Part shown: positions 4,724-57,215 of the stretch, one piece after another
Layout of the letters: every line of letters begins with the position of its first letter
Position numbering within the stretch: the stretch's first letter is position 1
Notes under the pieces: generated by a model
What the model was told of the DNA's origin: nothing
What the model saw: the letters and a program-made list of their open reading frames with translations, nothing else
Database searches by the model: none
IMG/VR virus record: IMGVR_UViG_3300009709_000002
Span: 232,228 to 296,227 of that record
DNA: 64,000 bases
Reading direction: 5' to 3' (one strand)
Origin: a virus
Lineage: Duplodnaviria > Heunggongvirae > Uroviricota > Caudoviricetes
Translations under genes and position numbers: made by a program

Positions 4724-5812
4724 ATGGCAAATAATGATTACGCAATGGTATGGTCTGATTCAACGCTGAAATCAGGCTTTACTTTGGAAGGTGGTACGAT
4801 TGACACAACGACCACCTCACTTTCTTTAACTGGTAAGGGCGTTTATCTCTGGGGTCAGAGAGTTCAAGAAAACTTCATTTCTTTGCTTGAAAATTTCGCC
4901 TCTAACAACCACCCACCAGCTAACCCAACAATTGGTCAGCTTTGGTACAATGCTTCAAACTCCAACGGTCCAGCATTTTACAACACTAGCTCGCAGTGGG
5001 AATACCTAGCAGCGATCAACCCTTCAACAGGTATGTTGCCGCCTGGCATCGTTCCAGCTCAGCCTTACATGATTTACAAAGGCACGTGGAACGCGACTAC
5101 GAACTCTCCAGCTCTCGTCTCTGGAACCGGAACGCAAGGTTATCTCTACAAGGTTGCAACGGCTGGTACAGTTACGGTTGATGGATGCTCACAGTGGTCT
5201 GTTGGTGATTTTATCTGCTTCAATGGAACTACGTGGGACAAGTTTGAAGGTCAAAACAGTGGAATTCCAATCGGCGCTATCATGCTGTGGAGCGGCTCGA
5301 TCGCTTCGATTCCAGCTCACTGGGCACTGTGCAATGGTGCAAATGGAACTCCTAATCTCACCGACCAGTTCGTCGTAGGTGCAGGTAATTCATACGCTCC
5401 AAGAAATACTGGTGGTGTAGCTTCTATTACGCTATCTCAGAGTCAAATGCCGTCACACACCCACGGCGTATCTGCTTCATCTGACGGTCAAGGTTCACAC
5501 GCTCACGGTGGCTCAACATCTGCTATCGGTGATCACCAACACCAACCACAGAATCTTGGATCAAACCAGGCGGGTCAGGATAATGGACAATCTGGTTGCT
5601 CGGTTGCCAACGGCTATGCTCTTACCAACGTACCATCACGTGATCAACAGCCTGATCTTCCGGCTGGTGGACACAGCCACACGATCGGTACCGATGTTCA
5701 AGGTTACCACGCTCACAACATCTTCGTGACGATCGCTAATGCTGGTAGCGGCGCTCCAATCGAAAACCGCCCTCCGTACTACGCTCTCGCGTACATCATG
5801 TACACCGGCTAA
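4724..5812 (+). CDS. Baseplate/short tail fibre protein with collar domain and HxH repeats
   Basis: ENFISLLENFA...PTIGQLWY N-terminus, collar motif PIGAIMLWSG...WALCNG...PNLTDQFVVGAG, several HxH motifs; late box at 4693-4700. Confidence 0.8.
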   Translation: MANNDYAMVWSDSTLKSGFTLEGGTIDTTTTSLSLTGKGVYLWGQRVQENFISLLENFASNNHPPANPTIGQLWYNASNSNGPAFYNTSSQWEYLAAINPSTGMLPPGIVPAQPYMIYKGTWNATTNSPALVSGTGTQGYLYKVATAGTVTVDGCSQWSVGDFICFNGTTWDKFEGQNSGIPIGAIMLWSGSIASIPAHWALCNGANGTPNLTDQFVVGAGNSYAPRNTGGVASITLSQSQMPSHTHGVSASSDGQGSHAHGGSTSAIGDHQHQPQNLGSNQAGQDNGQSGCSVANGYALTNVPSRDQQPDLPAGGHSHTIGTDVQGYHAHNIFVTIANAGSGAPIENRPPYYALAYIMYTG

Positions 5813-5832
5813 AATTAAGCTGCATAAACAAC

Positions 5833-5858
5833 AAAAGGTGCTGAAAAGCACCTTTTGT
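5833..5858. terminator. Bidirectional terminator between convergent genes
   Basis: aaaaggtgc-tgaaaa-gcacctttt, with a T-run on each strand. Confidence 0.75.
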
Positions 5859-5872
5859 ATTTTCTACTTCGT

Positions 5873-6934
5873 TTAAACTTTCAGGAAAGCATCCCAGTCA
5901 GAAACCGAGCGAGCTGAGTACGATACAAGACCGTCAAGGCTTTCACGGCAGTACTTACGAGCGTTAACCCAAACGTCCTTCAGCTTTTCAACCATGTCAT
6001 CAGTAGACGTTGGATCAGCGAAGGTAGCTGGAGCAGCCCACGAGATCTCAGACGAGCAAACAACCGGAACACCAACTACAACCGTGTCAGCTGTTACGAT
6101 GTTGAACGTTTCGGTGAATGACACTTGCATGCAGACATCCATCGCTTTGATAACGTTCAAGAATTCATCATGGTTAGTCCATTGTACCTCGACCAGCTCA
6201 GCGTTAGCCACGCTAGCGAACAAGCTACGAAGATTCTTCAATACATTTTCACCCATCATCTCATTGCGGCCGAGATTGATGTGGAACTTGAGCGGCAGTT
6301 CCAAGAAGTTAGCGAACTCAATAGCTGCGATCGCTTGCGCCAGGTGATTCTTCATCGGACGAACTGCACCGAAACATCCGATGTTCAACTCAATGCGACG
6401 ACGCCATGGCGAGTGGTGAACCCAAGTCTGCTCAGTAATTGGGTAGTAGTTTGGCAAGTAGGGCGTGCACTTTGATACGCTCATTGCACGGCTTGGGAAG
6501 TTGTGAGCTAGCACAGCAAGTTCCTTGTGGATACGAGGAGCATTGCCTGCTACAGCTACGCCACGACGCCAGTATTCAAAAGTCCAGCCCATCGCGATAC
6601 CTTCTTGCGCAAGGAATGGAACTTCACTGTGGCAACGTACAATCCATTGTACTTTCGGGTGCAGCGGCTTAAGTACGTCAAACTTTTCTGGCACAACCCA
6701 GTATCCTTCAATGAAGACGTGAGTTGGCTTGAATGCGGTTACTTCTCTATCAATGCTGTTGTTATCAATGACTACAACTACTTTTGCTTCAATACCTTGC
6801 TGTTGTAACATGTTGGCTACGAAGGTAGCCGAATTGAACATACCAGAGGCGACGCTTGGCTTGTAATGACTGACGTCTTGACCGTAGTCTTCACGCAGTT
6901 TGAGGATAAAGAGGGCACGAGGTGCGGTGTTCAT
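5873..6934 (-). CDS. Glycosyltransferase (GT-B fold, GT4-like)
   Basis: FGAVRPMKN and DVCMQVSFTETFNIVTAD, the GT4 R...K and E-x7-E-like motifs. Confidence 0.75.
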   Translation of the reverse strand: MNTAPRALFILKLREDYGQDVSHYKPSVASGMFNSATFVANMLQQQGIEAKVVVVIDNNSIDREVTAFKPTHVFIEGYWVVPEKFDVLKPLHPKVQWIVRCHSEVPFLAQEGIAMGWTFEYWRRGVAVAGNAPRIHKELAVLAHNFPSRAMSVSKCTPYLPNYYPITEQTWVHHSPWRRRIELNIGCFGAVRPMKNHLAQAIAAIEFANFLELPLKFHINLGRNEMMGENVLKNLRSLFASVANAELVEVQWTNHDEFLNVIKAMDVCMQVSFTETFNIVTADTVVVGVPVVCSSEISWAAPATFADPTSTDDMVEKLKDVWVNARKYCRESLDGLVSYSARSVSDWDAFLKV

Positions 6935-6962
6935 TAGGAGGCTCCGGAGGAATTGGCACAGA

Positions 6963-6970
6963 TATTTATA
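6963..6970 (-). promoter_or_regulatory. T4-late-like promoter TATAAATA for the glycosyltransferase
   Basis: Exact TATAAATA on the minus strand 29 nt upstream of the ATG. Confidence 0.65.
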
Positions 6971-7059
6971 GGTTGATTTTGCTCAAGTGATTGAAAAGAT
7001 TGACCTTGTAACGTCCTCGTAACGGCCGGATAACATCTTGTATCAATTTTCACAAAGAT

Positions 7060-7089
7060 GTTTACATGGGCCATTTTTGATGATATAAT
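7060..7089 (+). promoter_or_regulatory. Early sigma70-type promoter
   Basis: GTTTACA-N17-TATAAT, resembling the T4 early GTTTAC -35 element. Confidence 0.8.
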
Positions 7090-7124
7090 TTCTCCATTGG
7101 TAAATATTCTCTTTGGAGAATGAA

Positions 7125-7241
7125 ATGAAAAATCCGGTAGCAAAGGATCTTCACTCGCCAAAGTACAAGATGCGCGTTGTCAAAAAGAAGAAAGGCAAGG
7201 GCTCTTACAAGCGAGAAAAGAAGGTTAACAGCGACGACTGA
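7125..7241 (+). CDS. arfA: ArfA-like alternative ribosome-rescue factor (38 aa; absent from the ORF track)
   Basis: MKNPVAKDLHSPKYKMRVVKKKKGKGSYKREKKVNSDD matches the ArfA core (LxxPxFRQRVEKNKKGKGSYxRK); RBS ggag; directly after the early promoter. Confidence 0.75.
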   Translation: MKNPVAKDLHSPKYKMRVVKKKKGKGSYKREKKVNSDD

Positions 7242-7251
7242 CGGAGGTTGT

Positions 7252-7674
7252 ATGAAACCAACGTATGAGGAATTGGCAAAGTCCCTGCAAGAAGCGCTGA
7301 ATTTTATCGAGCATGACAAAGCGAATGAAGGAAAACTGACAAACGCTGATCAATGGCAGCGAAATGTAGTAGAGTTTCGCAAGCACACATCAATGATTGG
7401 TGTGGGCCGCACGGCGCTCGATGAAGCATCAGTGAACCTGGCAAAGATTCGCGATCAGCTTTCTCGGATCAATGATCCCGATGAAGTTGAAGAAGCTGTC
7501 GCAGCAGAAGCAAGCCCAGAGTTGGTCGAAGTGCTGAAGCAAAATCTTCGGATTGAAGTGGTGGAAGGCAATTTCACCGATCCGAACAAGCGCACGATCA
7601 AGCTGATGATCGGCATGGAAAAGATCAGTGAAGCTGATTTTGACGTTGTCCAGAAGCGAGAATACGAAGGTTAA
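7252..7674 (+). CDS. Hypothetical protein
   Basis: Start reassigned to ATG 7252 (RBS ggagg) because the track start at 7177 overlaps the ArfA-like ORF. Confidence 0.65.
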   Translation: MKPTYEELAKSLQEALNFIEHDKANEGKLTNADQWQRNVVEFRKHTSMIGVGRTALDEASVNLAKIRDQLSRINDPDEVEEAVAAEASPELVEVLKQNLRIEVVEGNFTDPNKRTIKLMIGMEKISEADFDVVQKREYEG

Positions 7675-7676
7675 TC

Positions 7677-7937
7677 ATGTCGTACCAGAACTTTTTCACA
7701 GCTGTGCATCTTCGTGATGAGTATGCATCAGTGCATAAAGGATATGCACAGCTGTTTGACATGATCAAACGTGGTTGGGGTAAGCTCTATCTTGACTTTG
7801 ATTGTCAAGTTGAAGCAACGATGGGTAACATTCAGAATCACATCCTCAATGGCGATCCTACGAGAGGCGTGCTGCTTTACTCGTCTCAGTATGAGCCCGC
7901 TCTGAAAGTTCAATATCAGACCTTAGAATTGTTCTGA
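7677..7937 (+). CDS. Hypothetical protein
   Basis: 86-aa ORF tightly packed in the early operon. Confidence 0.55.
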   Translation: MSYQNFFTAVHLRDEYASVHKGYAQLFDMIKRGWGKLYLDFDCQVEATMGNIQNHILNGDPTRGVLLYSSQYEPALKVQYQTLELF

Positions 7938-7945
7938 TCCTCGCG

Positions 7946-7953
7946 TATAAATA
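7946..7953 (+). promoter_or_regulatory. T4-late-like promoter upstream of the tRNA pair
   Basis: Exact TATAAATA 12 nt before tRNA-Thr. Confidence 0.65.
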
Positions 7954-7965
7954 GAAATTCTATCT

Positions 7966-8042
7966 GCTCCTGTAGTTCTAATTGGTCAGAATAGCTGATT
8001 GGTATTCAGCAGCTTTGGGTTCGAATCCCAATGGGAGCACCA
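7966..8042 (+). tRNA. tRNA-Thr(GGT)
   Basis: Cloverleaf: acceptor GCTCCTG/TGGGAGC, anticodon stem GCTGA/TCAGC with loop TT-GGT-AT, T-loop TTCGAAT, encoded CCA. Confidence 0.9.
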
Positions 8043-8052
8043 GCAGTACAAT

Positions 8053-8128
8053 CGAGATATGGTGAAATTGGTGATCGCGCGGGTTTCATACGCCTGAGTT
8101 TCCGGTTCGATCCCGGGTGTCTCGACCA
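8053..8128 (+). tRNA. tRNA with CAT anticodon (elongator Met or Ile2)
   Basis: Acceptor CGAGATA/TGTCTCG, loop TT-CAT-AC, T-arm TCCGG-TTCGATC-CCGGG, encoded CCA; C1-G72 is paired, so it is not a typical initiator. Confidence 0.85.
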
Positions 8129-8160
8129 AGCCTGAAGATGAAAGTCTTCAGGCTTTTGTT
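8129..8160 (+). terminator. Terminator after the tRNAs
   Basis: agcctgaagat-gaaa-gtcttcaggct followed by tttgtt. Confidence 0.8.
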
Positions 8161-8208
8161 GTTTCTACGGCCAATAAATACACGATGACAACCAATTGTG
8201 AGCCATAC

Positions 8209-9087
8209 ATGCGATTCAAACAGCTATACGAAGCTGGTAAAGCTTCCTCAAAAATTCAGACCAAAAATGATGTGCTCAATTGGCTAGCACAGAACAACTC
8301 AAATGAGCATCTTCCGGCTAACAAGAACAAGTATGCAGATAAAGCATATGACATCTACAGCGATTTAAGCGTAGATATTCTAAGCGGACATTCTTTTCAT
8401 CTTGACACAAGATTTAGCGGTGAGCTAACAGAGCTACCAATTCACTTCAGCAAGATGGAAGGCGCAGACTTTAGTGTTGTTGGATCTTCAATTAGCTCCT
8501 GGAAGAACTTTCCAACTGATTGGCATGGTGGGCAAACTCAACGACTTATTATCAGTGAGTCGAACATCACCTCATTTCACGGCATGCCAGAATTTGACGG
8601 AACTGCACTTCTTGCTAATATGCTAGACATTACTTCATTGGAAGGATTGAAGCTTGGTAGTAGAGTAAGAGCGGTACAGCTGAGTGACAATGATAAACTT
8701 AGTTCACTGAAGGGTCTGCCGCCACATGCTGGCAATGGGTACTTGTCTATCGGTGGTGAAGCGCTTGAATCACTTGAAGGTCTGCCGCCAGAGATTGATA
8801 GCTTCAGGTTGAAAGCTCCAAAAATGAAGTCACTGTCAAAGATTCATCGACACTTGAAGAAATGTCATCAGATGGTACTCATTGGAATGGATAGCCTGGA
8901 AGCTGGACTGCTTGGCCTATTGAAGATTGAAGATCTATCAGAGCTTACGTGGAATGAGATGCCGCTTGAAGTTACGAAAGCTCTAATCATTGTCAAAAAG
9001 CACCTGAAATCTGACAAAGAAGATAAAGTTCTAGCTTGTCAATCTGATCTCATTGATGCTGGTCTTGATGAATTTGCAACACTCTAA
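8209..9087 (+). CDS. LRR-like paralogue family member (dispersed copy, longer repeat region)
   Basis: Start reassigned to MRFKQLYEAG; LxSLxGL repeats; GLLGLLKI motif; C-terminus ACQSDLIDAGLDEFATL; late box AATAAATA at 8173-8180. Confidence 0.8.
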   Translation: MRFKQLYEAGKASSKIQTKNDVLNWLAQNNSNEHLPANKNKYADKAYDIYSDLSVDILSGHSFHLDTRFSGELTELPIHFSKMEGADFSVVGSSISSWKNFPTDWHGGQTQRLIISESNITSFHGMPEFDGTALLANMLDITSLEGLKLGSRVRAVQLSDNDKLSSLKGLPPHAGNGYLSIGGEALESLEGLPPEIDSFRLKAPKMKSLSKIHRHLKKCHQMVLIGMDSLEAGLLGLLKIEDLSELTWNEMPLEVTKALIIVKKHLKSDKEDKVLACQSDLIDAGLDEFATL

Positions 9088-9121
9088 CATAAATATGTAA
9101 CTAGATGTACCGGAGATTTAT

Positions 9122-9511
9122 ATGCACAACTTTTTGACACATAACGTCAATGAAATTAGCTTCATCATTTGTGGACTAATCGGCGGTATCGCCCACTGGT
9201 TGAAGAAGAGCCTTAGAGGCGAGACCCAAGCAAAGATTTGGGAATGGTTCGGACCAGCAAATGCCGAGCTTACGATTTACACTCTTATTGTCTTCGTCTT
9301 CGTGATGATCGGTGCGCTTGGTTCAGGCATCATCAACAATTCGATGACTATCTGGTCGGTTTTTTACACTGGCTTCATTACTGGTTTTGCCGTGGATTCT
9401 GGCGTGAATGCTAACGCTATGGACCTAACGACGGATATTAGTACGGTGAAGGGGCAGACCACGGATTTGTTCAACGTAACACCAACTCCGCCAGCACCTC
9501 CAAAGGACTAA
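9122..9511 (+). CDS. Putative holin
   Basis: About three hydrophobic segments, directly upstream of the spanin pair; late box at 9088-9095. Confidence 0.5.
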   Translation: MHNFLTHNVNEISFIICGLIGGIAHWLKKSLRGETQAKIWEWFGPANAELTIYTLIVFVFVMIGALGSGIINNSMTIWSVFYTGFITGFAVDSGVNANAMDLTTDISTVKGQTTDLFNVTPTPPAPPKD

Positions 9512-9513
9512 CC

Positions 9514-9951
9514 ATGCCAGTATTTCTTACCAGCCTACTCACCAACGCTAAGTTGTGGATCGGCATTCTGATTCTAGCTGCAGTTGGAGCTGGATTCATT
9601 TACGTGAAGCACGTACAAGATGAGCTTGCTCTTTCTCAGGCAAACCTGAAGACTGAACAGGCAAATGAAGTAACGTTGAAGGGTACGATCTCACAGCTTA
9701 CTGCAGCTCAAGCCCAAGATCAATTAGTCATTCAACAAGTTACTTCGGACAAGCAAGCAGCTCTTGATGCAGTTTCTGCTTTGAATACTTCTCTGAATAC
9801 GTCTGCTCAGCAGATTGGTACATTGAAGTCACAGCTAAACAACATCACAGCTAAGCCAACAAACCTTACACCATTCTTGGTGCAAGCAATTCAAGGCGTG
9901 CAAGCTCAACAAGCATCACGCGCAGCTGCGCCTGTAGGAGCATCACAATGA
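9514..9951 (+). CDS. Inner-membrane spanin (Rz-like)
   Basis: N-terminal TM helix plus Gln/Ala-rich coiled coil; overlaps the lipoprotein gene. Confidence 0.75.
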   Translation: MPVFLTSLLTNAKLWIGILILAAVGAGFIYVKHVQDELALSQANLKTEQANEVTLKGTISQLTAAQAQDQLVIQQVTSDKQAALDAVSALNTSLNTSAQQIGTLKSQLNNITAKPTNLTPFLVQAIQGVQAQQASRAAAPVGASQ

Positions 9952-10277
9952 AGAAAATTCTAGCAGCACTGCTTATTGTCGGTTCATTAGCTCTGCTTGC
10001 TGGTTGTGGAACTGCCCCAACCGATCCAGTTGTTCCTCCAGCTGTCATTCACTACAAGTATATCGTGACAACTGTTCCAGCTTCAATGCTCACATTGCCA
10101 GCTCCAGTGCCTCCGCTTAACACTCAGACGGCTACTGACAAGGATGCAAGCATTTGGATTTTGGACAACGAGCAGCGCACTGAAGCACTCGAAGATCAGC
10201 TAAAAGCGATCCAGACTTACCTCAGTAATAAGATCAAAAACCTGAATCTGCCACCAGCTGATGTAACAATCGATTAA
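9948..10277 (+). CDS. Outer-membrane spanin lipoprotein (Rz1-like)
   Basis: Lipobox LLAG-C, Pro-rich linker, ATGA overlap with the i-spanin. Confidence 0.8.
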   Translation: MKKILAALLIVGSLALLAGCGTAPTDPVVPPAVIHYKYIVTTVPASMLTLPAPVPPLNTQTATDKDASIWILDNEQRTEALEDQLKAIQTYLSNKIKNLNLPPADVTID

Positions 10278-10280
10278 AAG

Positions 10281-10346
10281 AAAGGCTCTAGTATCAAAAC
10301 TAGAGCCTTTATTCTTTAGTAACAGGGACTATCAACTAGTCCCTTT
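10281..10346. terminator. Two hairpin terminators between convergent operons
   Basis: aaaggctctagt...actagagccttt and agggacta...tagtccct. Confidence 0.7.
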
Positions 10347-10349
10347 GTC

Positions 10350-10985
10350 TTAAATCACGTGGTTAAACCATGAACGATAATCACCTGGGAAATCTGCAGG
10401 ATTGTAGATCCAGATGCCTTCAGCTGCCACATGGAAGCGAACACACTGTAGTTCGCCTACCAAAATTGGAGCTGTTAGGGAGATGAATCGTTCACAAGCT
10501 GGATAAACTACGAGCGTGCCCTTCTGTGGTTGGAAGCCAAACTGATAGACCGGGAATTCTAGCTTACCACCTAGAACCTCACGTTCAATGTTGAACGGTG
10601 GTTTGTCTTGAAAGTTCTTCAACCACAAGATCCCAGTGAGATCTCTGTCTCTTACCTTTACCCACTTCTTACGTTTGAACACTGCATTTTCACAGTGAGG
10701 TGCTTCTGCTGGCTTGTTCGTCACTGGGAATTGCTGGAACACTAGGTGTTCGGTCCCCTTGTACTTCACGCCAAAATAACTTTCAAGCTGAGGAACGATC
10801 GTCTTAAACTTCTCAAACAGCTCTTTTTCAGCTTGCTCATGGTGACGATGCATGGGTTGAGGAACGCCGTCCTGGTCAAAAGTCGGCGCTACACGAACCT
10901 CATCAGCAATTCTGTCACAGTCAGCATCGGGTAAGAAGTCCTGATAAACTAAAAACGGGGACTTTGATGGTTTCACTGTACTCAT
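10350..10985 (-). CDS. 2OG-Fe(II) oxygenase-like protein, possibly degenerate
   Basis: PHCE...RDLTGILWL...GGKLEFP...PQKGTLVVYP, the P4H-like DSBH pattern. Confidence 0.65.
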   Translation of the reverse strand: MSTVKPSKSPFLVYQDFLPDADCDRIADEVRVAPTFDQDGVPQPMHRHHEQAEKELFEKFKTIVPQLESYFGVKYKGTEHLVFQQFPVTNKPAEAPHCENAVFKRKKWVKVRDRDLTGILWLKNFQDKPPFNIEREVLGGKLEFPVYQFGFQPQKGTLVVYPACERFISLTAPILVGELQCVRFHVAAEGIWIYNPADFPGDYRSWFNHVI

Positions 10986-11034
10986 TGGGTTAAGCTCTTT
11001 GATGGTTATGTTTCTAGATGAAGATATTTATTGC

Positions 11035-12543
11035 TTATTCTTCTTCACTAGTTTTGGCAACTGGCGGAGTAGAGGCAGCAACTAGTACTGGGAGACCAAT
11101 CTCGCCAAGCAGATTTCGTCCCATCAGCACATCATACTTCATGTTAGTTCTATCATTCAGCGTGAACTCAATGCCATTGTAACGTTGACCACGAACTGTG
11201 ACGTCAAGCTTAACGATAGGGCGACGAGTTGTATACTTCTCACGATCCGTATCGCTGGTGTGAGCATTCTTGATCAAAATAGTGCGTGACAGTGGAACAT
11301 TGTAACGAACATCACCGTGTGTGAACTTGACCCAGTTATCATCCATTTCAATGTTTTCAGCATGGAGTGATGATAGCGTCGCGCCTGTGTCTACACGAGC
11401 TGCGAACGGCTGGTTGTCATTGATGCGGTGAAGGATAATATCTTCTACATCAGTCAGCGGATCCTTTGGAAGCTCTGCAACCACTTCTTCAGGAGCTGGA
11501 AGCTCAGGTGGTGCAACAGCAGCTGCAACCGAATCAGCTTCAGGAGCAACTGGAGTAACGTTGGTCACTTGCGTTTCTGGTCTGAGTTCCGTTTTAGCTG
11601 GAAGACATGCTTGTTCAATCATGTGTGCAGCAAAGGTAACTACGTCACTTGGAAGGCTACGATCTGGCCAATTCTTTTGCATTGCTTCAAGACCTGGCGA
11701 ACCATTCACTTCAAGAACGATAAACTCTTTCTTGCCATCTTTATCGAGAATGATGTAATCGATAGCGCAGAATTTGCAACCAAACAACTCGACGATGCGA
11801 GCGCCTAGAGCAAGCTCAGCTTCAGATGGTTCATACTTGACGGTTTCAGAACCGAGGTGTGAGTTCGTGCGGAATTCATCCTTGCCCTTTGGTTGACCAC
11901 GAAGGTTTGCTGCGAGCATCTTATCGCCGATCATGATGATACGAGCGGATTGTTCATGCTCAATGAATTCTTGCAGCATGAAGTGCATCTCTTCCTTAAG
12001 CAGCGTTTGAGCAACTGATGTAAGTGAAGACTTGCTATCGACCTTCATAACACCAATGCCGTGCGTACCACGAAGAGTCTTGATGATCATAGGGAACTTG
12101 AGCTTACCATCTTTTTCAGCTTGTTCCAGCACAACATCGAGATATTCTCCATCGGTCATCATCAAACTGTAAGGTGTCTTGATGTTAGCGCTATTGAGAA
12201 CTACTTGTGAACGAAGCTTATCATTACATAGCATCATTGAGTCTGGAGAGTTCAGCATCTGAACGCCGCAATCTTGCAGACGGTGAAGCATGCCGATCTT
12301 GTACTCGAGACAGTATTCATTCAAACGTGGAATGCAGACGTCACCAATGATCTCGGAGACCTTCATGTCTTTATCAACCTGAAGAGCCTTGGTAATACGT
12401 TCACCCTTGTCATTGAAGCCCTCAACCAAAAACGTCTTGTCAACGTTGATAATCTCGGCTTGGTTGCCTTGGGCTTCTGCTTGCTTCTTGAGCTCGACCG
12501 GTACGAAGTTTTCCGGTTCTGCTGTGATGATGAGTAGTTTCAC
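11035..12543 (-). CDS. rimK: RimK-family ATP-grasp ligase fused to a RimK-associated (RimB-like) aspartic protease
   Basis: NDK...PMIIK..GTHGIGV...QEFI...RTNSHLG...AID...EVNGSPG; after a Pro/Ala linker, ARVDTGATLSSLH...FTLNDR...VLMGRNLL. Confidence 0.85.
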   Translation of the reverse strand: MKLLIITAEPENFVPVELKKQAEAQGNQAEIINVDKTFLVEGFNDKGERITKALQVDKDMKVSEIIGDVCIPRLNEYCLEYKIGMLHRLQDCGVQMLNSPDSMMLCNDKLRSQVVLNSANIKTPYSLMMTDGEYLDVVLEQAEKDGKLKFPMIIKTLRGTHGIGVMKVDSKSSLTSVAQTLLKEEMHFMLQEFIEHEQSARIIMIGDKMLAANLRGQPKGKDEFRTNSHLGSETVKYEPSEAELALGARIVELFGCKFCAIDYIILDKDGKKEFIVLEVNGSPGLEAMQKNWPDRSLPSDVVTFAAHMIEQACLPAKTELRPETQVTNVTPVAPEADSVAAAVAPPELPAPEEVVAELPKDPLTDVEDIILHRINDNQPFAARVDTGATLSSLHAENIEMDDNWVKFTHGDVRYNVPLSRTILIKNAHTSDTDREKYTTRRPIVKLDVTVRGQRYNGIEFTLNDRTNMKYDVLMGRNLLGEIGLPVLVAASTPPVAKTSEEE

Positions 12544-31919: not shown

Positions 31920-32285
31920 TTAGACTTCTTCAGACTCGAAAGTCTGGTTGTCGATGCGCTTCTTTAGCTGTTGCTGACGCTTTGGATTTGCAGGTTGGCC
32001 TGTGCCAGACTCATCATGAGTGCCGACATAGTAGATGAACAGCGTTGTTGGATTTTTGCCCTTAAGCTCATATATGATACGAATATCACTAGAAAGAGCA
32101 GCGTGGAGTAAACCATGCAGCGGGCCGTTACCAGCAAACGGCGTATCTTTCGACCCGAACTTTTCCATCGGGTTCTTGGCCTTCAACTTCAGGAATTCGC
32201 CGTACGCTTCTTTTACTTTTGCGTTTTTGAAATGCTTTTCTTTCGTTTCATCGAACAGTTTGCAGGTCTTGAAAATTACGCTCAC
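31920..32285 (-). CDS. RelE/YafQ-family mRNA interferase-like protein
   Basis: KDTPFAG...HAALSSDIRIIY...YVGTHD aligns with YafQ KDHPLQG...DAHVEPDWILIY...RTGTHA. Confidence 0.72.
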   Translation of the reverse strand: MSVIFKTCKLFDETKEKHFKNAKVKEAYGEFLKLKAKNPMEKFGSKDTPFAGNGPLHGLLHAALSSDIRIIYELKGKNPTTLFIYYVGTHDESGTGQPANPKRQQQLKKRIDNQTFESEEV

Positions 32286-32461
32286 TTCAGACCCTCACGT
32301 TCCAGCATTTCTTCCAGCGTCATGCCTTTCGACCATTGACCATGCGCCTTCTCATCGAGAACCTTTTCGACTACTTCGTTGCTGTAGCCGGTCTGGTTAT
32401 TCAATGCAAATTCATCCAACCGTTGTTGTTGCTTTTCACTGATGATTTCATGAACTTTCAT
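32282..32461 (-). CDS. Small acidic protein upstream of the YafQ-like gene (candidate antitoxin)
   Basis: Start reassigned to MKVHEIISE (RBS aaggag); GTGA overlap with the toxin gene; C-terminus WSKGMTLEEMLE; late box at 32487-32494. Confidence 0.55.
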   Translation of the reverse strand: MKVHEIISEKQQQRLDEFALNNQTGYSNEVVEKVLDEKAHGQWSKGMTLEEMLEREGLK

Positions 32462-32536
32462 GGTATCAACTCCTTTAACAGTTGGATATTTATGTAGATT
32501 ATTGTATACCCAACTGCTCAAAAAGTAAACCAGAGT

Positions 32537-45204: not shown

Positions 45205-45279
45205 TGGCCGCCTCTCCGGGGATCGAACCCGGGACCATGGCTTTTAGAGGGCCCTGCTCTACCGCTGAGCTAAGAGGCG
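45205..45279 (-). tRNA. tRNA with CUA anticodon (amber-suppressor type)
   Basis: CGCCTCT-TA-GCTC-AGCGGTA-GAGC-A-GGGCC-CTCTAAA-AGCCA-TGGTC-CCGGG-TTCGATC-CCCGG-AGAGGCG-G-CCA: perfect acceptor, D and T arms; U33-CUA-A37; two mismatches in the anticodon stem. Confidence 0.8.
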
Positions 45280-53572: not shown

Positions 53573-54163
53573 TTACAGCTTTGCAAACTTATCTAGATCA
53601 TTGTCGATGAGCTCTGTTTGGCAAGCTAGCACGTCCTTGTCAGCCAGATGGTTCTTGGCGATCGTGAGAGCGTCGAACATTTCATCTGAAATTTCAGAGT
53701 GTGATGGTCGTTTGAGGCTCAATCGTTTGAGGTTTGGGAACTTCAACAAACCAAGCACTCCGTTGAACTCCGCATCTGACAGTTCAATCGATGTGACCTT
53801 GTCGAGACGGTTGACACCCTTAAGATCACCAACAGAAAGATGGCTTAATGACAGAAGCTTAACGTTTGGTAGATCTTTGCCACTCAAGTTTAAGCCGATA
53901 AAAGCTACGCTGTCCATGCCTTCAACCGACTTAAGGTAATCGAAGGGGCAGGTAGAGATGTCTTGAGCTTCACCTTGATCAATACAAAATTCAACATTCT
54001 TGACATTTGGAGCGAATGTAACCTTCCCATCGGCGTCAATAGTTGTATACGAATCAGTGTCAAGCTGCACATAGTTAGAGGCATACAATATGCACCAGTG
54101 CATCACCCACTTCTCAACTTTCTTCTGAATTTCTGTTTCTTCAAAAATCTGCTTAATTTTCAT
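53573..54163 (-). CDS. LRR-like paralogue family member
   Basis: MKIKQIFEE; GVLGLLKFPNLKRL; ACQTELIDNDLDKFAKL. Confidence 0.82.
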   Translation of the reverse strand: MKIKQIFEETEIQKKVEKWVMHWCILYASNYVQLDTDSYTTIDADGKVTFAPNVKNVEFCIDQGEAQDISTCPFDYLKSVEGMDSVAFIGLNLSGKDLPNVKLLSLSHLSVGDLKGVNRLDKVTSIELSDAEFNGVLGLLKFPNLKRLSLKRPSHSEISDEMFDALTIAKNHLADKDVLACQTELIDNDLDKFAKL

Positions 54164-54792
54164 AGCTTTGCGTACTCATCACAGCCTGCATCAATCAACG
54201 CGGTTTGACACTCAACGATGTCGCCATCAGCCAGGTGATCATTGACGATCTTAAGAGCTTCTGCTAGCTTGTCATCTACAGTGTGCTTTCGTGCCTGAAG
54301 ATTTTCAAGCTTTGGAAAGTCTTTCTTCTTTAAGAAACGAAGGAGCCCGCAATGAACTTTTGTGAAGTTAGCAATTTCGATATCTTCCACATCATTCAAC
54401 GGATCACCAACAGTTTCGAACGTTTCTATCTCACAGTTATTGAAGACTAGGTAGCTAACGTTAGGTATGTTCTTTAGTTTGGTGCCATGCTCAAACTTTG
54501 CATGATACAGTACCATGCCATATTGGTCTGGGTCCCAGTCATTGGATTCAAATGGACAGTACCATGGGCGACCGTGCATGTCAATCTTCACGTCAGCTAT
54601 TCCCCATGCCTCTATCCTACCAGATTTTTCACTAACTTGAAAACCAATATCATCTGGGTCTGCTTCATCCCAAATCTTTTCAATCGGCCAACTATCATAG
54701 TGGGGATCCATCGGCGATAATTCAACGTGTTCTTTAATCCAAAATTGAGCATTTGGATTTGCTGATTCTTTCAGGAAATCTTTGAATTTCAT
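54160..54792 (-). CDS. LRR-like paralogue family member
   Basis: MKFKDFLKE; CGLLRFLK; ECQTALIDAGCDEYAKL. Confidence 0.82.
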   Translation of the reverse strand: MKFKDFLKESANPNAQFWIKEHVELSPMDPHYDSWPIEKIWDEADPDDIGFQVSEKSGRIEAWGIADVKIDMHGRPWYCPFESNDWDPDQYGMVLYHAKFEHGTKLKNIPNVSYLVFNNCEIETFETVGDPLNDVEDIEIANFTKVHCGLLRFLKKKDFPKLENLQARKHTVDDKLAEALKIVNDHLADGDIVECQTALIDAGCDEYAKL

Positions 54793-55379
54793 AACTTTGC
54801 GTACTCTTCAAAACCAGCATCAATAAGTTGAGATTGAGCTTCTACCGTATCTTTGTCCTTAAGATTGTCACTGATGATATGGCAAAGCTTTGACATTTCA
54901 GTTTGGTTGTTGATGCCCATGCAAACTTGAGCTTGCGACTTGATAATGCGAAGAACTCCACACTCAAGCACATCTTTTGGATCATGTCCACCAAAAGAAA
55001 TATTGACGAGCTGACGTTTCTTCTCAATACCTTTGAAAGACTTGAAGACGCAATCCTTGAACAGCACAACCTGCACGTCTGGCACATCTTCATAGTCTTC
55101 GAACTCATAGTTCTCAAACACCATCCGAGACACGCTCCAGGCAGTTGGTGGTATTCCCTGCGGCCCTTCAAACTTACGTTTTGGACCAGACAAGTGTTCG
55201 GCCTTTGTAAAGCCATTCAACTTGTATGAAGATCCGGAGCTTTTCAAGATGTCATACTTGACGATACGACCATTTTGATACTTCAACTGAGCAGGCATAC
55301 CTTCAAAGCGATTATCGGCATACCATTTGTCAAATGTTTCTTTGTGTCCTGCACTTTCTACTAGGTCTTTTAATTTCAT
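54789..55379 (-). CDS. LRR-like paralogue family member
   Basis: MKLKDLVE; CGVLRIIK; EAQSQLIDAGFEEYAKL. Confidence 0.82.
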   Translation of the reverse strand: MKLKDLVESAGHKETFDKWYADNRFEGMPAQLKYQNGRIVKYDILKSSGSSYKLNGFTKAEHLSGPKRKFEGPQGIPPTAWSVSRMVFENYEFEDYEDVPDVQVVLFKDCVFKSFKGIEKKRQLVNISFGGHDPKDVLECGVLRIIKSQAQVCMGINNQTEMSKLCHIISDNLKDKDTVEAQSQLIDAGFEEYAKL

Positions 55380-56014
55380 GGTTGTGCCCAATCATCTAGG
55401 TCTGCATCGATTAACTCATTCTGAAAATCGATGAGTGATTTGCTGTGATTCATTGCATCTTGCATCTTACCAGTAAGCTTTGATAGTTCATCTGTATTGT
55501 TGCTGCTATCCATGTGAATTCTATCCAGGTAAGGCATTTTGTAGATGTAAATGATGTTCTTCTTTATCTGCTCACAGTCACGCAATTCAAGTCGATGAAC
55601 AACTGGTAGAGCCTTATCAATTCCTTTCCAAGTATCAATGATGCAGCCTCTGAGTATCACACCGCTAATATCAGCTGGCGGCATCAAGTTCCAGTCATTT
55701 ATACGCGCACCTTTGATTCTTAACATGATGCCATCATCAATATCAATTTGCCATTCAGGCTCACCAGGCGGTTGTCTAAATGGTTCATTTTTGAAATTTA
55801 AATTGACTTGTAAAATAGCTCCATCAAATATAATCTTTTTGCCGTCATCAACTATTTGAAGATAGCCGTCTTGATCTTTTGTCTTATCAGCGCCAAATTT
55901 GACACTGTATTGAGCACGATATCCATCGTCATCAATGCTATACTCCATATGCTTCTCAAGCCACTGGACAAGCGTAGTGGTTGGATCTTCTTTCAAGAAC
56001 TCTTTGAATTTCAT
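55376..56014 (-). CDS. LRR-like paralogue family member
   Basis: MKFKEFLKE; DFQNELIDADLDDWAQP. Confidence 0.8.
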   Translation of the reverse strand: MKFKEFLKEDPTTTLVQWLEKHMEYSIDDDGYRAQYSVKFGADKTKDQDGYLQIVDDGKKIIFDGAILQVNLNFKNEPFRQPPGEPEWQIDIDDGIMLRIKGARINDWNLMPPADISGVILRGCIIDTWKGIDKALPVVHRLELRDCEQIKKNIIYIYKMPYLDRIHMDSSNNTDELSKLTGKMQDAMNHSKSLIDFQNELIDADLDDWAQP

Positions 56015-56586
56015 AGCTTAGCAATCTCTTCAAATCCTGCATCAATTAAGTCTGCTTGGCATTCAACAATGTTCTTGCCACTCGATAGATGCTTATTTAT
56101 GATGTCTACCGCCTTGTCGTCTAGCACGTGCTCAGCTGTATGAATTTCATTTAGATTATACATCTTAAGAAGTCTTAACCATCCACCTTCAACAGTCGTG
56201 CTCCCGGTAAAATACATACGTCTTATTTTACCAAGCTTTTCGATATTTCTAAAAGACTTGATGATGCAGCCATGAAAGCCTAGTGAGTTTGTAACATTAG
56301 GTGCTCTACCAATGTCATCAATCGTATAGTCCCACAGTGCAACCGAATAGAATTCACCCCAATCAGTTGGCTTAATAAAAGCTGGTGGGTTCCACCTGTC
56401 TTTAACGCTTTCACGACCCATAAAATCGACAGTCTTGGTGTGAGCAATTAAGCACTCAAGCTCGCCGTCTTTTGAATAGTAAGCAACAGGCTGATCTTCT
56501 GGCTCACGCTGATCTGCTTCCCATTTTGAAAATTCAATCTGCTCTTTTGTTTTCGTGCTAGCTTCTAGGAACGTTTTGAATTTCAT
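56011..56586 (-). CDS. LRR-like paralogue family member
   Basis: MKFKTFLE; GGWLRLLKM; ECQADLIDAGFEEIAKL. Confidence 0.82.
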   Translation of the reverse strand: MKFKTFLEASTKTKEQIEFSKWEADQREPEDQPVAYYSKDGELECLIAHTKTVDFMGRESVKDRWNPPAFIKPTDWGEFYSVALWDYTIDDIGRAPNVTNSLGFHGCIIKSFRNIEKLGKIRRMYFTGSTTVEGGWLRLLKMYNLNEIHTAEHVLDDKAVDIINKHLSSGKNIVECQADLIDAGFEEIAKL

Positions 56587-57215
56587 AGCTTTGCCCAATC
56601 ATCAAAATCCGCATCAATCAATTTATCTTGAAATTCAAGTGTAGATAATTTTGCTTTTAGGCTGTCTTTAAAAATTTTGATAGGTTGGTTATCAAATCCA
56701 TTGCCTTTTATCTTGAAGCTATTCCAATCTAACTCTAAAACATCTTCATGTTTTAGAGCATATTTGTACAAAGACAATAAACCACATGGCTTATTTGTAT
56801 CTACCGAGTTAATATCACCAAGCTCTAAATGCTTTAAATTCGTGAGTTTATCTATACCTTTAAATGACTCAAAATTACACAGCTTCAAATAAATTGATTT
56901 GATATTTGGAAGCAACGTTGCGTCTTTGAAATTCATTCTAAGCACTTTCATGTGACTAAATTTTTCAAAGGCTTTAGGTGCATCAAATGGAGGATCAAAA
57001 TCAGCATATCCATACAAGCTAATGTCATTATACTCTAGATCGCCAGCCTGCGCAGAGTGAGGTCCAGTTTTCAAGAGCTTAATGTCGACATGGCCGTCCT
57101 TGAACGTAAGTTTTTTAGTTGCCGAGTAGCCATTCACGCTCATACCATCAACATACTTATGCAACCACTTGCTAGCAGCTTTGTCTTCTGTGGACATTAT
57201 TTCAACTAACTTCAT
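56583..57215 (-). CDS. LRR-like paralogue family member
   Basis: MKLVEIMSTE; FESFKGIDKLTNLKHLEL; EFQDKLIDADFDDWAKL. Confidence 0.82.
   Translation of the reverse strand: MKLVEIMSTEDKAASKWLHKYVDGMSVNGYSATKKLTFKDGHVDIKLLKTGPHSAQAGDLEYNDISLYGYADFDPPFDAPKAFEKFSHMKVLRMNFKDATLLPNIKSIYLKLCNFESFKGIDKLTNLKHLELGDINSVDTNKPCGLLSLYKYALKHEDVLELDWNSFKIKGNGFDNQPIKIFKDSLKAKLSTLEFQDKLIDADFDDWAKL

Follow-up and report, generated by a model that had tools for sequence, protein, structure and literature searches.

ArfA of E. coli (YhdL; structures 5MGP, 5MDV, 5U4I and 5H5U) is viewed in reviews as a back-up factor that is made only when trans-translation fails and activates RF2 via its N-terminal minidomain (PMC8012679, PMC5378476). 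A hairpin gives rise to a non-stop mRNA, and the protein made from it escapes tmRNA tagging only when trans-translation is saturated (PMC8012679). Pro23 touches A1492 and A1493, Phe25 packs on β-4/β-5 of RF2, and the Q27–E30 strand augments the RF2 domain 2/4 sheet; residues 46–48 are the last ordered in cryo-EM, and a 1–40 truncation is inactive (PMC8012679, PMC5378476). Folding of the minidomain opens RF2 (PMC5378476), with Ala18 packing against Ile11 and C1914, and Leu19, Leu24 and Phe25 binding RF2 Trp319, Val198 and Phe217 (PMC5378476, PMC8012679). When Ala18 is changed to threonine (A18T), RF2 is bound and recruited, yet not activated (PMC5378476, PMC8012679). Where the mRNA extends more than 3 nt beyond the P site, ArfA loses much of its activity (PMC8012679). 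BrfA of Bacillus subtilis, to which the phage protein reported below is likened by description, is likewise small and basic, occupies the mRNA channel and supplies RF2 with an additional β-strand (PMC8012679), but it belongs to a different family with unrelated sequence and is made from non-stop mRNA as ArfA is.

Phage ArfA as such is already known from two papers and a JGI name. Pfam domains identified it in Pelagibacter phage HTVC027P (gp30, PMC12753301), where it is transcribed during infection (PMC12753301), and in Citromicrobium phage RXM (g10, PMC8953757), known here from the annotation in that paper alone. The hosts of both phages are Alphaproteobacteria, and both reports are annotation only, without analysis of architecture or mechanism. 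The JGI name, ‘alternative ribosome-rescue factor’, belongs to a relative 84% identical to our protein. In the searched literature, we found no description of a mini architecture with coordinated loss of the RF2-activating residues, of its stop-codon-based expression, of its abundance in phages and SAR11, or of its place as the first gene of tRNA units in jumbo phages, and no experiment on any mini-ArfA. The undescribed part is apparently the loss of the N-terminal minidomain in this subfamily.

The DNA analysed here (the window, 64,000 nt) covers positions 232228–296227 of a 360,227-bp IMG/VR record with direct terminal repeats, a genome of 46.9% GC with 51 tRNA genes and a tmRNA. The initial annotation had pointed to a 38-aa ArfA-like ORF with the tunnel motif, a ribosome-binding site and a promoter, and each of these elements is in place. 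The mini-ArfA gene (7125–7241, plus strand) runs from ATG 7125 to its own TGA at 7239–7241, and its 38-aa product, P0001, contains RVVKKKKGKGSYKR. A Shine-Dalgarno GGAGA, read from the sequence at 7115–7119, lies 5 nt ahead of the ATG. Upstream, a σ70-like promoter, probably of the early class (7061–7089, plus strand; TTTACA-17 nt-TG-n-TATAAT), has 11 of 12 matches with an extended −10 TG, and is the sole 11/12 site among 10 promoter-like matches in 5500–12000. The ORF had also been called unannotated, which holds for the first ORF track but not for the public protein collection, where P0001 carries a precomputed PF03889 match, nor for its JGI-named relative.

Mini-ArfA is the first gene behind this promoter, and the unit extends through both of its tRNA genes. 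A 140-aa ORF (7252–7674, with GGAGG ahead of its ATG) and an 86-aa ORF (7677–7937), both on the plus strand, have no assigned function and no Pfam or PHROG match. They are followed on the same strand by tRNA-Thr (GGU; 7966–8042; Rfam tRNA 54.5 bits) and tRNA-Met (CAU; 8053–8128; Rfam tRNA 49.6 bits), both detected by ARAGORN, and Rfam over 6800–8300 found these two tRNAs and nothing else. The unit ends at an intrinsic-terminator-like hairpin at 8128–8155 (plus strand), a 12-bp stem followed by a T-run, which is the only plus-strand terminator-like site from 7089 to 8155. On the other side, a leftward glycosyltransferase-like gene (5873–6934, weak GT4 matches) precedes the intergenic region. 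Blocks at 6985–7052, upstream of the mini-ArfA promoter, are kept in a related locus (L011, below): TTGAC-n-TTGTAAC, CGTAAC and CGGATAACATCT-n-GTATCAATTTT. These blocks may serve the divergent glycosyltransferase-like gene as its promoter/operator, or may be where a regulator binds.

The promoter belongs to a class, TTTAC[AT]-N16–18-TA[TC]A[AC]T, that has 47 copies in the 360-kb genome, mostly with 17-nt spacing, 43 of them on the minus strand, which is the main coding strand. T4-type late boxes (TATAAATA) number 21 in the genome. The proposed first place in an operon thus stands, and early timing of mini-ArfA may reasonably be read from the promoter type alone. In the window, class promoters lie at 7061, 31847, 32529, 38914, 39986, 45767, 50485 and 59714, and over half of the class have a G ahead of the −35 box.

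A 38-aa protein that is 84% identical to P0001 (P0002) is found on two JGI contigs sharing the same upstream gene. When the DNA of the window was aligned with that of the related locus L011, which encodes the 84% relative, conservation extended over both promoter boxes (−35 and −10), the leader and the start codon, and the DNA past the mini-ArfA stop codon was unrelated; promoter 7061–7089 and leader GTAAATATTCTCTTTGGAGAA are conserved in both L011 and a second locus, L012. Between the window and L011, the ORF has 12 synonymous and 6 non-synonymous codon differences (dN/dS 0.05), and 4 of the 6 amino-acid replacements fall within the last five residues. The start conserved between the two is ATG 7125, since a TTG at 7113 that is in frame in the window is out of frame in L011. 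In L011, mini-ArfA is directly followed by the same tRNA-Thr(GGU) and tRNA-Met(CAU), and the 140-aa and 86-aa ORFs are absent. These two ORFs are therefore specific to the window, and the ArfA–tRNA module is the conserved unit.

ArfA-like identity, as the initial annotation had it, was confirmed by profile searches. Against the Pfam ArfA family (PF03889, gathering cut-off 25.5 bits), P0001 scores 35.6 bits (E 6e-9) over profile positions 18–42 of 44. With P0001 as a phmmer query against PDB, E. coli ArfA chains alone fall below E 1e-3. An exhaustive search of 1.84 billion representatives gave 96 clusters at E ≤ 1e-3, mostly of 36–90 aa. PF03889 is matched individually by 29 of 30 short relatives, and a profile built from the 30 has E. 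coli ArfA as its sole PDB match (E 8.5e-11). NCBIfam has no model matching P0001, and its PHROG matches are weak and unnamed. P0001 has no GGQ and Pfam gives ArfA alone, so that it does not belong with ArfB and the class-I release factor domain (PF00472). By these sequence matches, we regard P0001 as a confirmed ArfA-family homologue.

A small ORF arising by chance in a leader region could be suspected, as the frame is very short and in L011 lies directly upstream of tRNA genes. This is hardly credible, because dN/dS is 0.05 with 12 synonymous codon changes, the Pfam match exceeds its cut-off, relatives make up the 96 representative clusters and occur on at least 219 viral contigs, and a good Shine-Dalgarno sequence precedes a conserved start. 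The conservation pattern effectively refutes it and confirms a genuine phage gene under purifying selection.

Comparison with E. coli ArfA divides the protein into a kept part and a lost part. Phage residues 3–33 align without gaps to E. coli 14–44 (phage n = E. coli n + 11; functional roles from PMC8012679 and PMC5378476). The basic tail is kept, as phage K20–K33 corresponds to E. coli K31–K44 with the KGKGS tunnel motif, and the last residue of P0001 matches E. coli position 49, past the ordered residues and past the end of the inactive truncation. The charged tail has the length expected for the mRNA channel, where its binding is predicted. Pro12 is the counterpart of Pro23, Tyr14 takes the place of Phe25, and strand 27–30 is kept as M16-R17-V18-V19, so that the A-site mid-region (Pro23, aromatic 25 and β-strand 27–30) is complete. 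The likeness to E. coli ArfA thus covers the KKGKGSY tail, Pro23, the aromatic residue 25 and the R-V strand.

On the other hand, P0001 lacks E. coli residues 1–11, leaving Pfam profile positions 1–17 unmatched, and carries Lys7 for Ala18, Asp8 for Leu19 and Lys13 for Leu24; the KH motif of E. coli ArfA is KV. The hydrophobic N-terminal minidomain (residues 1–19 with Ile11, Ala18 and Leu19, plus Leu24) is thus not present in P0001. As judged from the alignment, mini-ArfA retains the sensor together with the strand for recruitment, but not the element that activates RF2 in E. coli. The initial annotation had overlooked the loss of this minidomain; RF2-dependent release cannot be assumed for mini-ArfA because the activating minidomain is lacking (PMC5378476). 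By homology, we infer that mini-ArfA would bind the ribosome and, with less confidence for the same reason, that it would activate RF2.

The substitutions are general in the subfamily. A position table anchored on the KGKG motif was made from 10 canonical ArfAs (8 from Alteromonadales and 2 from a Burkholderiales-order sample), 79 viral mini copies and 100 mini copies from genomes. E. coli position 11, I in 10/10 canonical proteins, is conserved in neither mini set. Position 18 is A in 10/10 canonical proteins and K in 65/79 viral and 76/100 genome copies; position 19 is L in 10/10 and D/E in 70/79 and 84/100; position 24 is L/V/I in 10/10 and K in 69/79 and 92/100. The asparagine at position 14 (10/10 canonical) remains in 77/79 viral and 96/100 genome copies, and the aromatic F/Y at position 25 (10/10) in 79/79 and 98/100. 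Most mini forms have hydrophobic residues at positions 16 and 20, and R/K/Q then V/I at 28–29. Charged residues at 18 and 19 would be expected if the helix face became solvent-exposed after loss of the N-terminal hairpin.

It is possible, though we doubt it, that mini-ArfA binds the tunnel without activating RF2. It may recruit closed RF2 as ArfA(A18T) does and serve as a competitor or a gate, for example by blocking host tmRNA–SmpB tagging of phage products, or alternatively by holding ribosomes for the phage SmpB–tmRNA or a phage RF1-type factor. The missing minidomain and the change of Ala18, Leu19 and Leu24 to Lys, Asp and Lys speak for it, as does A18T itself, which binds and recruits RF2 without activation (PMC8012679, PMC5378476) and, like the mini form, has no functional packed Ala18–Ile11 core (PMC5378476). 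The mini form differs from A18T, a loss-of-function allele, in being a design found in nature, conserved widely and kept by purifying selection. Against the non-activating alternative, the 18/19 substitutions fit an alternative active design as well as they fit inactivity.

This non-activating alternative also draws on the phage having its own tmRNA, SmpB and RF1-type factor, all encoded outside the window on the minus strand. The tmRNA (genome 86729–87083, Rfam 95 bits) has the tag AASNDSSYALAA, and SmpB (genome 132710–133138) scores 169.8 bits. The RF1-type release factor of 223 codons (genome 344783–345454; L004:1093–1764) is without domain 1, has a P-P-T tripeptide and GGQ, and scores 174 bits as RF1 vs 114 bits as RF2. 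At its codon 36, where canonical release factors have Trp, there is an in-frame TGA followed by C. When a complex was predicted between mini-ArfA and the post-UGA part of this factor, the score was 0.09 against a mark of 0.32, which speaks neither for nor against such a complex. The factor has many relatives of 173–226 aa.

We prefer, with moderate confidence, the reading that mini-ArfA is made early and constitutively, senses the empty mRNA tunnel of non-stop ribosomes, and frees these ribosomes by recruiting host RF2. As read from the sequence, host RNA polymerase would transcribe mini-ArfA early, together with the two small ORFs and tRNA-Thr/tRNA-Met. Host mRNA decay, phage or host endonucleases and mRNA-cleaving defence systems would be sources of non-stop ribosomes. 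At the 3′ end of a cut or truncated mRNA, the lysine-rich tail (KKKKGKGSYKREKK) would enter the vacant mRNA channel, the mid-region (His10, Pro12, Tyr14 and Met16–Val19) would lie in the A site, and the β-strand would pair with domain 2/4 of host RF2. RF2 would then hydrolyse peptidyl-tRNA, and the freed ribosome would go to phage translation. The tmRNA, SmpB, 51 tRNAs and downstream same-strand tRNAs of the genome favour rescue. Direct relief of anticodon-nuclease stalls, which had been suggested for the phage copy, is unlikely unless A-site mRNA is also cut, because ArfA needs an emptied mRNA channel.

The expression of mini-ArfA differs from that of E. coli ArfA in the way that the initial annotation had foreseen. 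The E. coli ORF has 72 aa and the active form about 55 aa; mini-ArfA, of 38 aa, is phage-borne and co-transcribed with tRNAs. It ends soon after KGKGS with the in-frame TGA at 7239–7241, and the next gene begins 11 nt on. The RNA fold of 7096–7300 is no more stable than shuffles (z = −0.87), without a significant hairpin, so that none of the features by which a non-stop mRNA would be made (internal hairpin, RNase III or terminator) was found there. Because of its own stop codon and the lack of a significant hairpin, the non-stop/tmRNA control of E. coli ArfA is absent, and mini-ArfA should be made irrespective of trans-translation. The own stop codon also means that the trans-translation and ArfA routes could run simultaneously. 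Between the Ser38 equivalent and the stop there are 11 residues in the window and a median of 12 in viral relatives, compared with a median of 6 in Pelagibacteraceae and 17–34 in canonical ArfAs.

A mini-ArfA subfamily on hundreds of phage contigs and on SAR11 chromosomes, with its own stop, the minidomain lost and the tunnel sensor kept, runs against expectation. If it still triggers release, it is a minimal ArfA with a second way of opening a release factor; otherwise it is a natural modulator of ribosome rescue used by phages. Either way, it bears on how large phages keep ribosomes available amid host mRNA breakdown or RNase-based defence.

The viral relatives are numerous. With a 7-sequence alignment as the query, at least 219 viral contigs in IMG/VR were found to encode mini-ArfA relatives (for the public protein collection, the query was a 42-aa frame). 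Under a stricter motif filter, 55 of the 80 examined loci give 33–71-aa ORFs with their own stop, and one 104-aa outlier occurs in two loci. Some marine phage mini-ArfAs carry an N-terminal extension, MPGKWDG[KR]SRISND-x-YR (L024, L028, L030–L033, L036–L038, L041 and L047), or a conserved C-terminal tail ending WSGIV (L034, L037, L053, L059, L064 and L065).

With a longer family member as the query, relatives were also found in the cultured phages HTVC027P (gp30), CRP-212 of Roseobacter and Cr30 of Caulobacter, whose copies are ‘hypothetical’ or unannotated in GenBank. Neither tblastn of the 38-aa protein nor megablast of 6000–9000 gave anything among cultured phages, likely owing to query length and the low-complexity filter. 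HTVC027P gp30 matches a viral family member at 68.6% identity; unlike P0001, it is 58 aa long with an extra N-terminal extension, and adjoins a small terminase gene and no tRNAs. The Cr30 ORF (50 aa, 26.9 bits on PF03889; L296:2501–2611, record 11151–11261) is absent from the GenBank annotation, and its cluster is flanked by two RNA ligase genes.

By DNA polymerase, the closest cultured relative of our phage is Ralstonia phage RsoM2USA (47.6% identity), in which a tRNA-Pro-Cys-Glu-Glu array lies 10 nt downstream of the end of a similar ORF (21.3 bits, below the cut-off). In six large-phage loci (the window, L011, L013, L014, L045 and RsoM2USA), all 18 nearby tRNA genes are downstream on the same strand, and among 77 other viral loci, mostly on small contigs, none has a tRNA within the flanks. 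The linkage could be inherited synteny rather than repeated selection, the large phages being possibly related.

This repeated link to downstream same-strand tRNA genes lends something to another reading, namely that mini-ArfA is an ArfA-derived basic peptide with a different target, such as the tRNA precursors of its own operon, rRNA in assembly or a host nuclease. The best-scoring part of the Pfam match is indeed a lysine-rich low-complexity stretch. We nevertheless consider this quite unlikely. Conservation goes beyond the basic stretch to positions that in E. coli ArfA touch the decoding centre and RF2, namely N14, the hydrophobic positions 16/20, P23, Y/F25 and R-V at 28–29; moreover, the family profile matches ArfA alone in PDB.

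Other features of these phages were recorded alongside. A tRNA with a CUA (amber-reading) anticodon lies at window 45205–45279 (minus strand), and another jumbo phage, of 345 kb, carries a CUA tRNA (L045:3585–3660) 0.5 kb downstream of mini-ArfA on the same strand. Among the genome's stop-to-stop frames of at least 200 codons, TAG is the rarest stop (15, against 144 TAA and 79 TGA). At window 54160–63661 (minus strand), about 15 tandem ORFs of 195–218 aa form an apparent paralogous gene array. A link of mini-ArfA to a candidate YafQ/RelE-like toxin pair at 31920–32494 (minus strand) was rejected, as neither ORF of the pair matches Pfam at E ≤ 0.1.

The phage SmpB is closest to those of Burkholderiales, Steroidobacterales and Nevskiales (52–61% identity). 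No ArfA was found in five genomes from these lineages, and 2 of 151 sampled Burkholderiales-order genomes have one, full-length and canonical in both. With ArfA rare and canonical there, there is no evidence for recent capture of the gene from these lineages. The tmRNA is no general companion of mini-ArfA: none scored above the cut-off in five further viral records that carry mini-ArfA, two of which are complete phage genomes (210 and 345 kb).

Nor is the mini form a phage invention. About 100 genomes, nearly all Pelagibacteraceae (SAR11), have a 35–45-aa chromosomal mini-ArfA with its own stop (loci L093–L212), found with a degenerate DNA pattern for KKGKGS[YF]KR; a narrow KYKMRV pattern over genome contigs gave no relatives. 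Some of the Pelagibacteraceae copies are on contigs of up to 1 Mb, and examples are L150:5420–5545 (minus strand) and L164:3291–3419 (plus strand). In two genomes examined, mini-ArfA adjoins a Trans_reg_C regulator and a YkuD transpeptidase, a neighbourhood from which the gene is taken to be chromosomal rather than a prophage gene. Like P0001, these proteins end at their own stop and have lost the same minidomain, and the two share the consensus N-x-[IF]-A-K-D-L-x-x-K-K-Y-K-x-R-[IV]-[VI]-K-P-K-K-G-K-G-S-F-K-R; unlike P0001, they are cellular, with a shorter tail past KGKGS (median 6 vs 11). The conserved housekeeping neighbourhood argues for a constructive cellular role, and a pure rescue inhibitor, as in the non-activating alternative, is hard to justify for a form that is chromosomal and conserved in streamlined Pelagibacteraceae.

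A bolder proposal, unlikely in our estimate, goes beyond the preferred reading. Mini-ArfA could be a distinct class of empty-tunnel sensor that triggers release without the minidomain, perhaps untied to the Trp319 switch loop of RF2, as the early arm of a phage rescue kit and as an overlooked rescue pathway in SAR11. If so, the kit would consist of mini-ArfA, tmRNA, SmpB and the domain-1-less RF1-type factor gated by an in-frame UGA, and would release ribosomes from degraded host mRNA for use on phage messages. The SAR11 pathway would then lie outside Gamma- and Betaproteobacteria, to which ArfA is currently assigned.

The canonical-length ArfAs of Alteromonadales (Pseudoalteromonas, Colwellia, Litorilituus and relatives) end in ...ESYLIAA or ...EPYLIAA. 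The ...YLIAA ending is found at L105, L115, L136, L160, L171, L177, L183, L196 and L210, and L174 ends in ...YLKAA. These ends resemble the C-terminus of the ssrA degradation tag; they may be a degron encoded in the gene, by which the level of full-length ArfA is held down.
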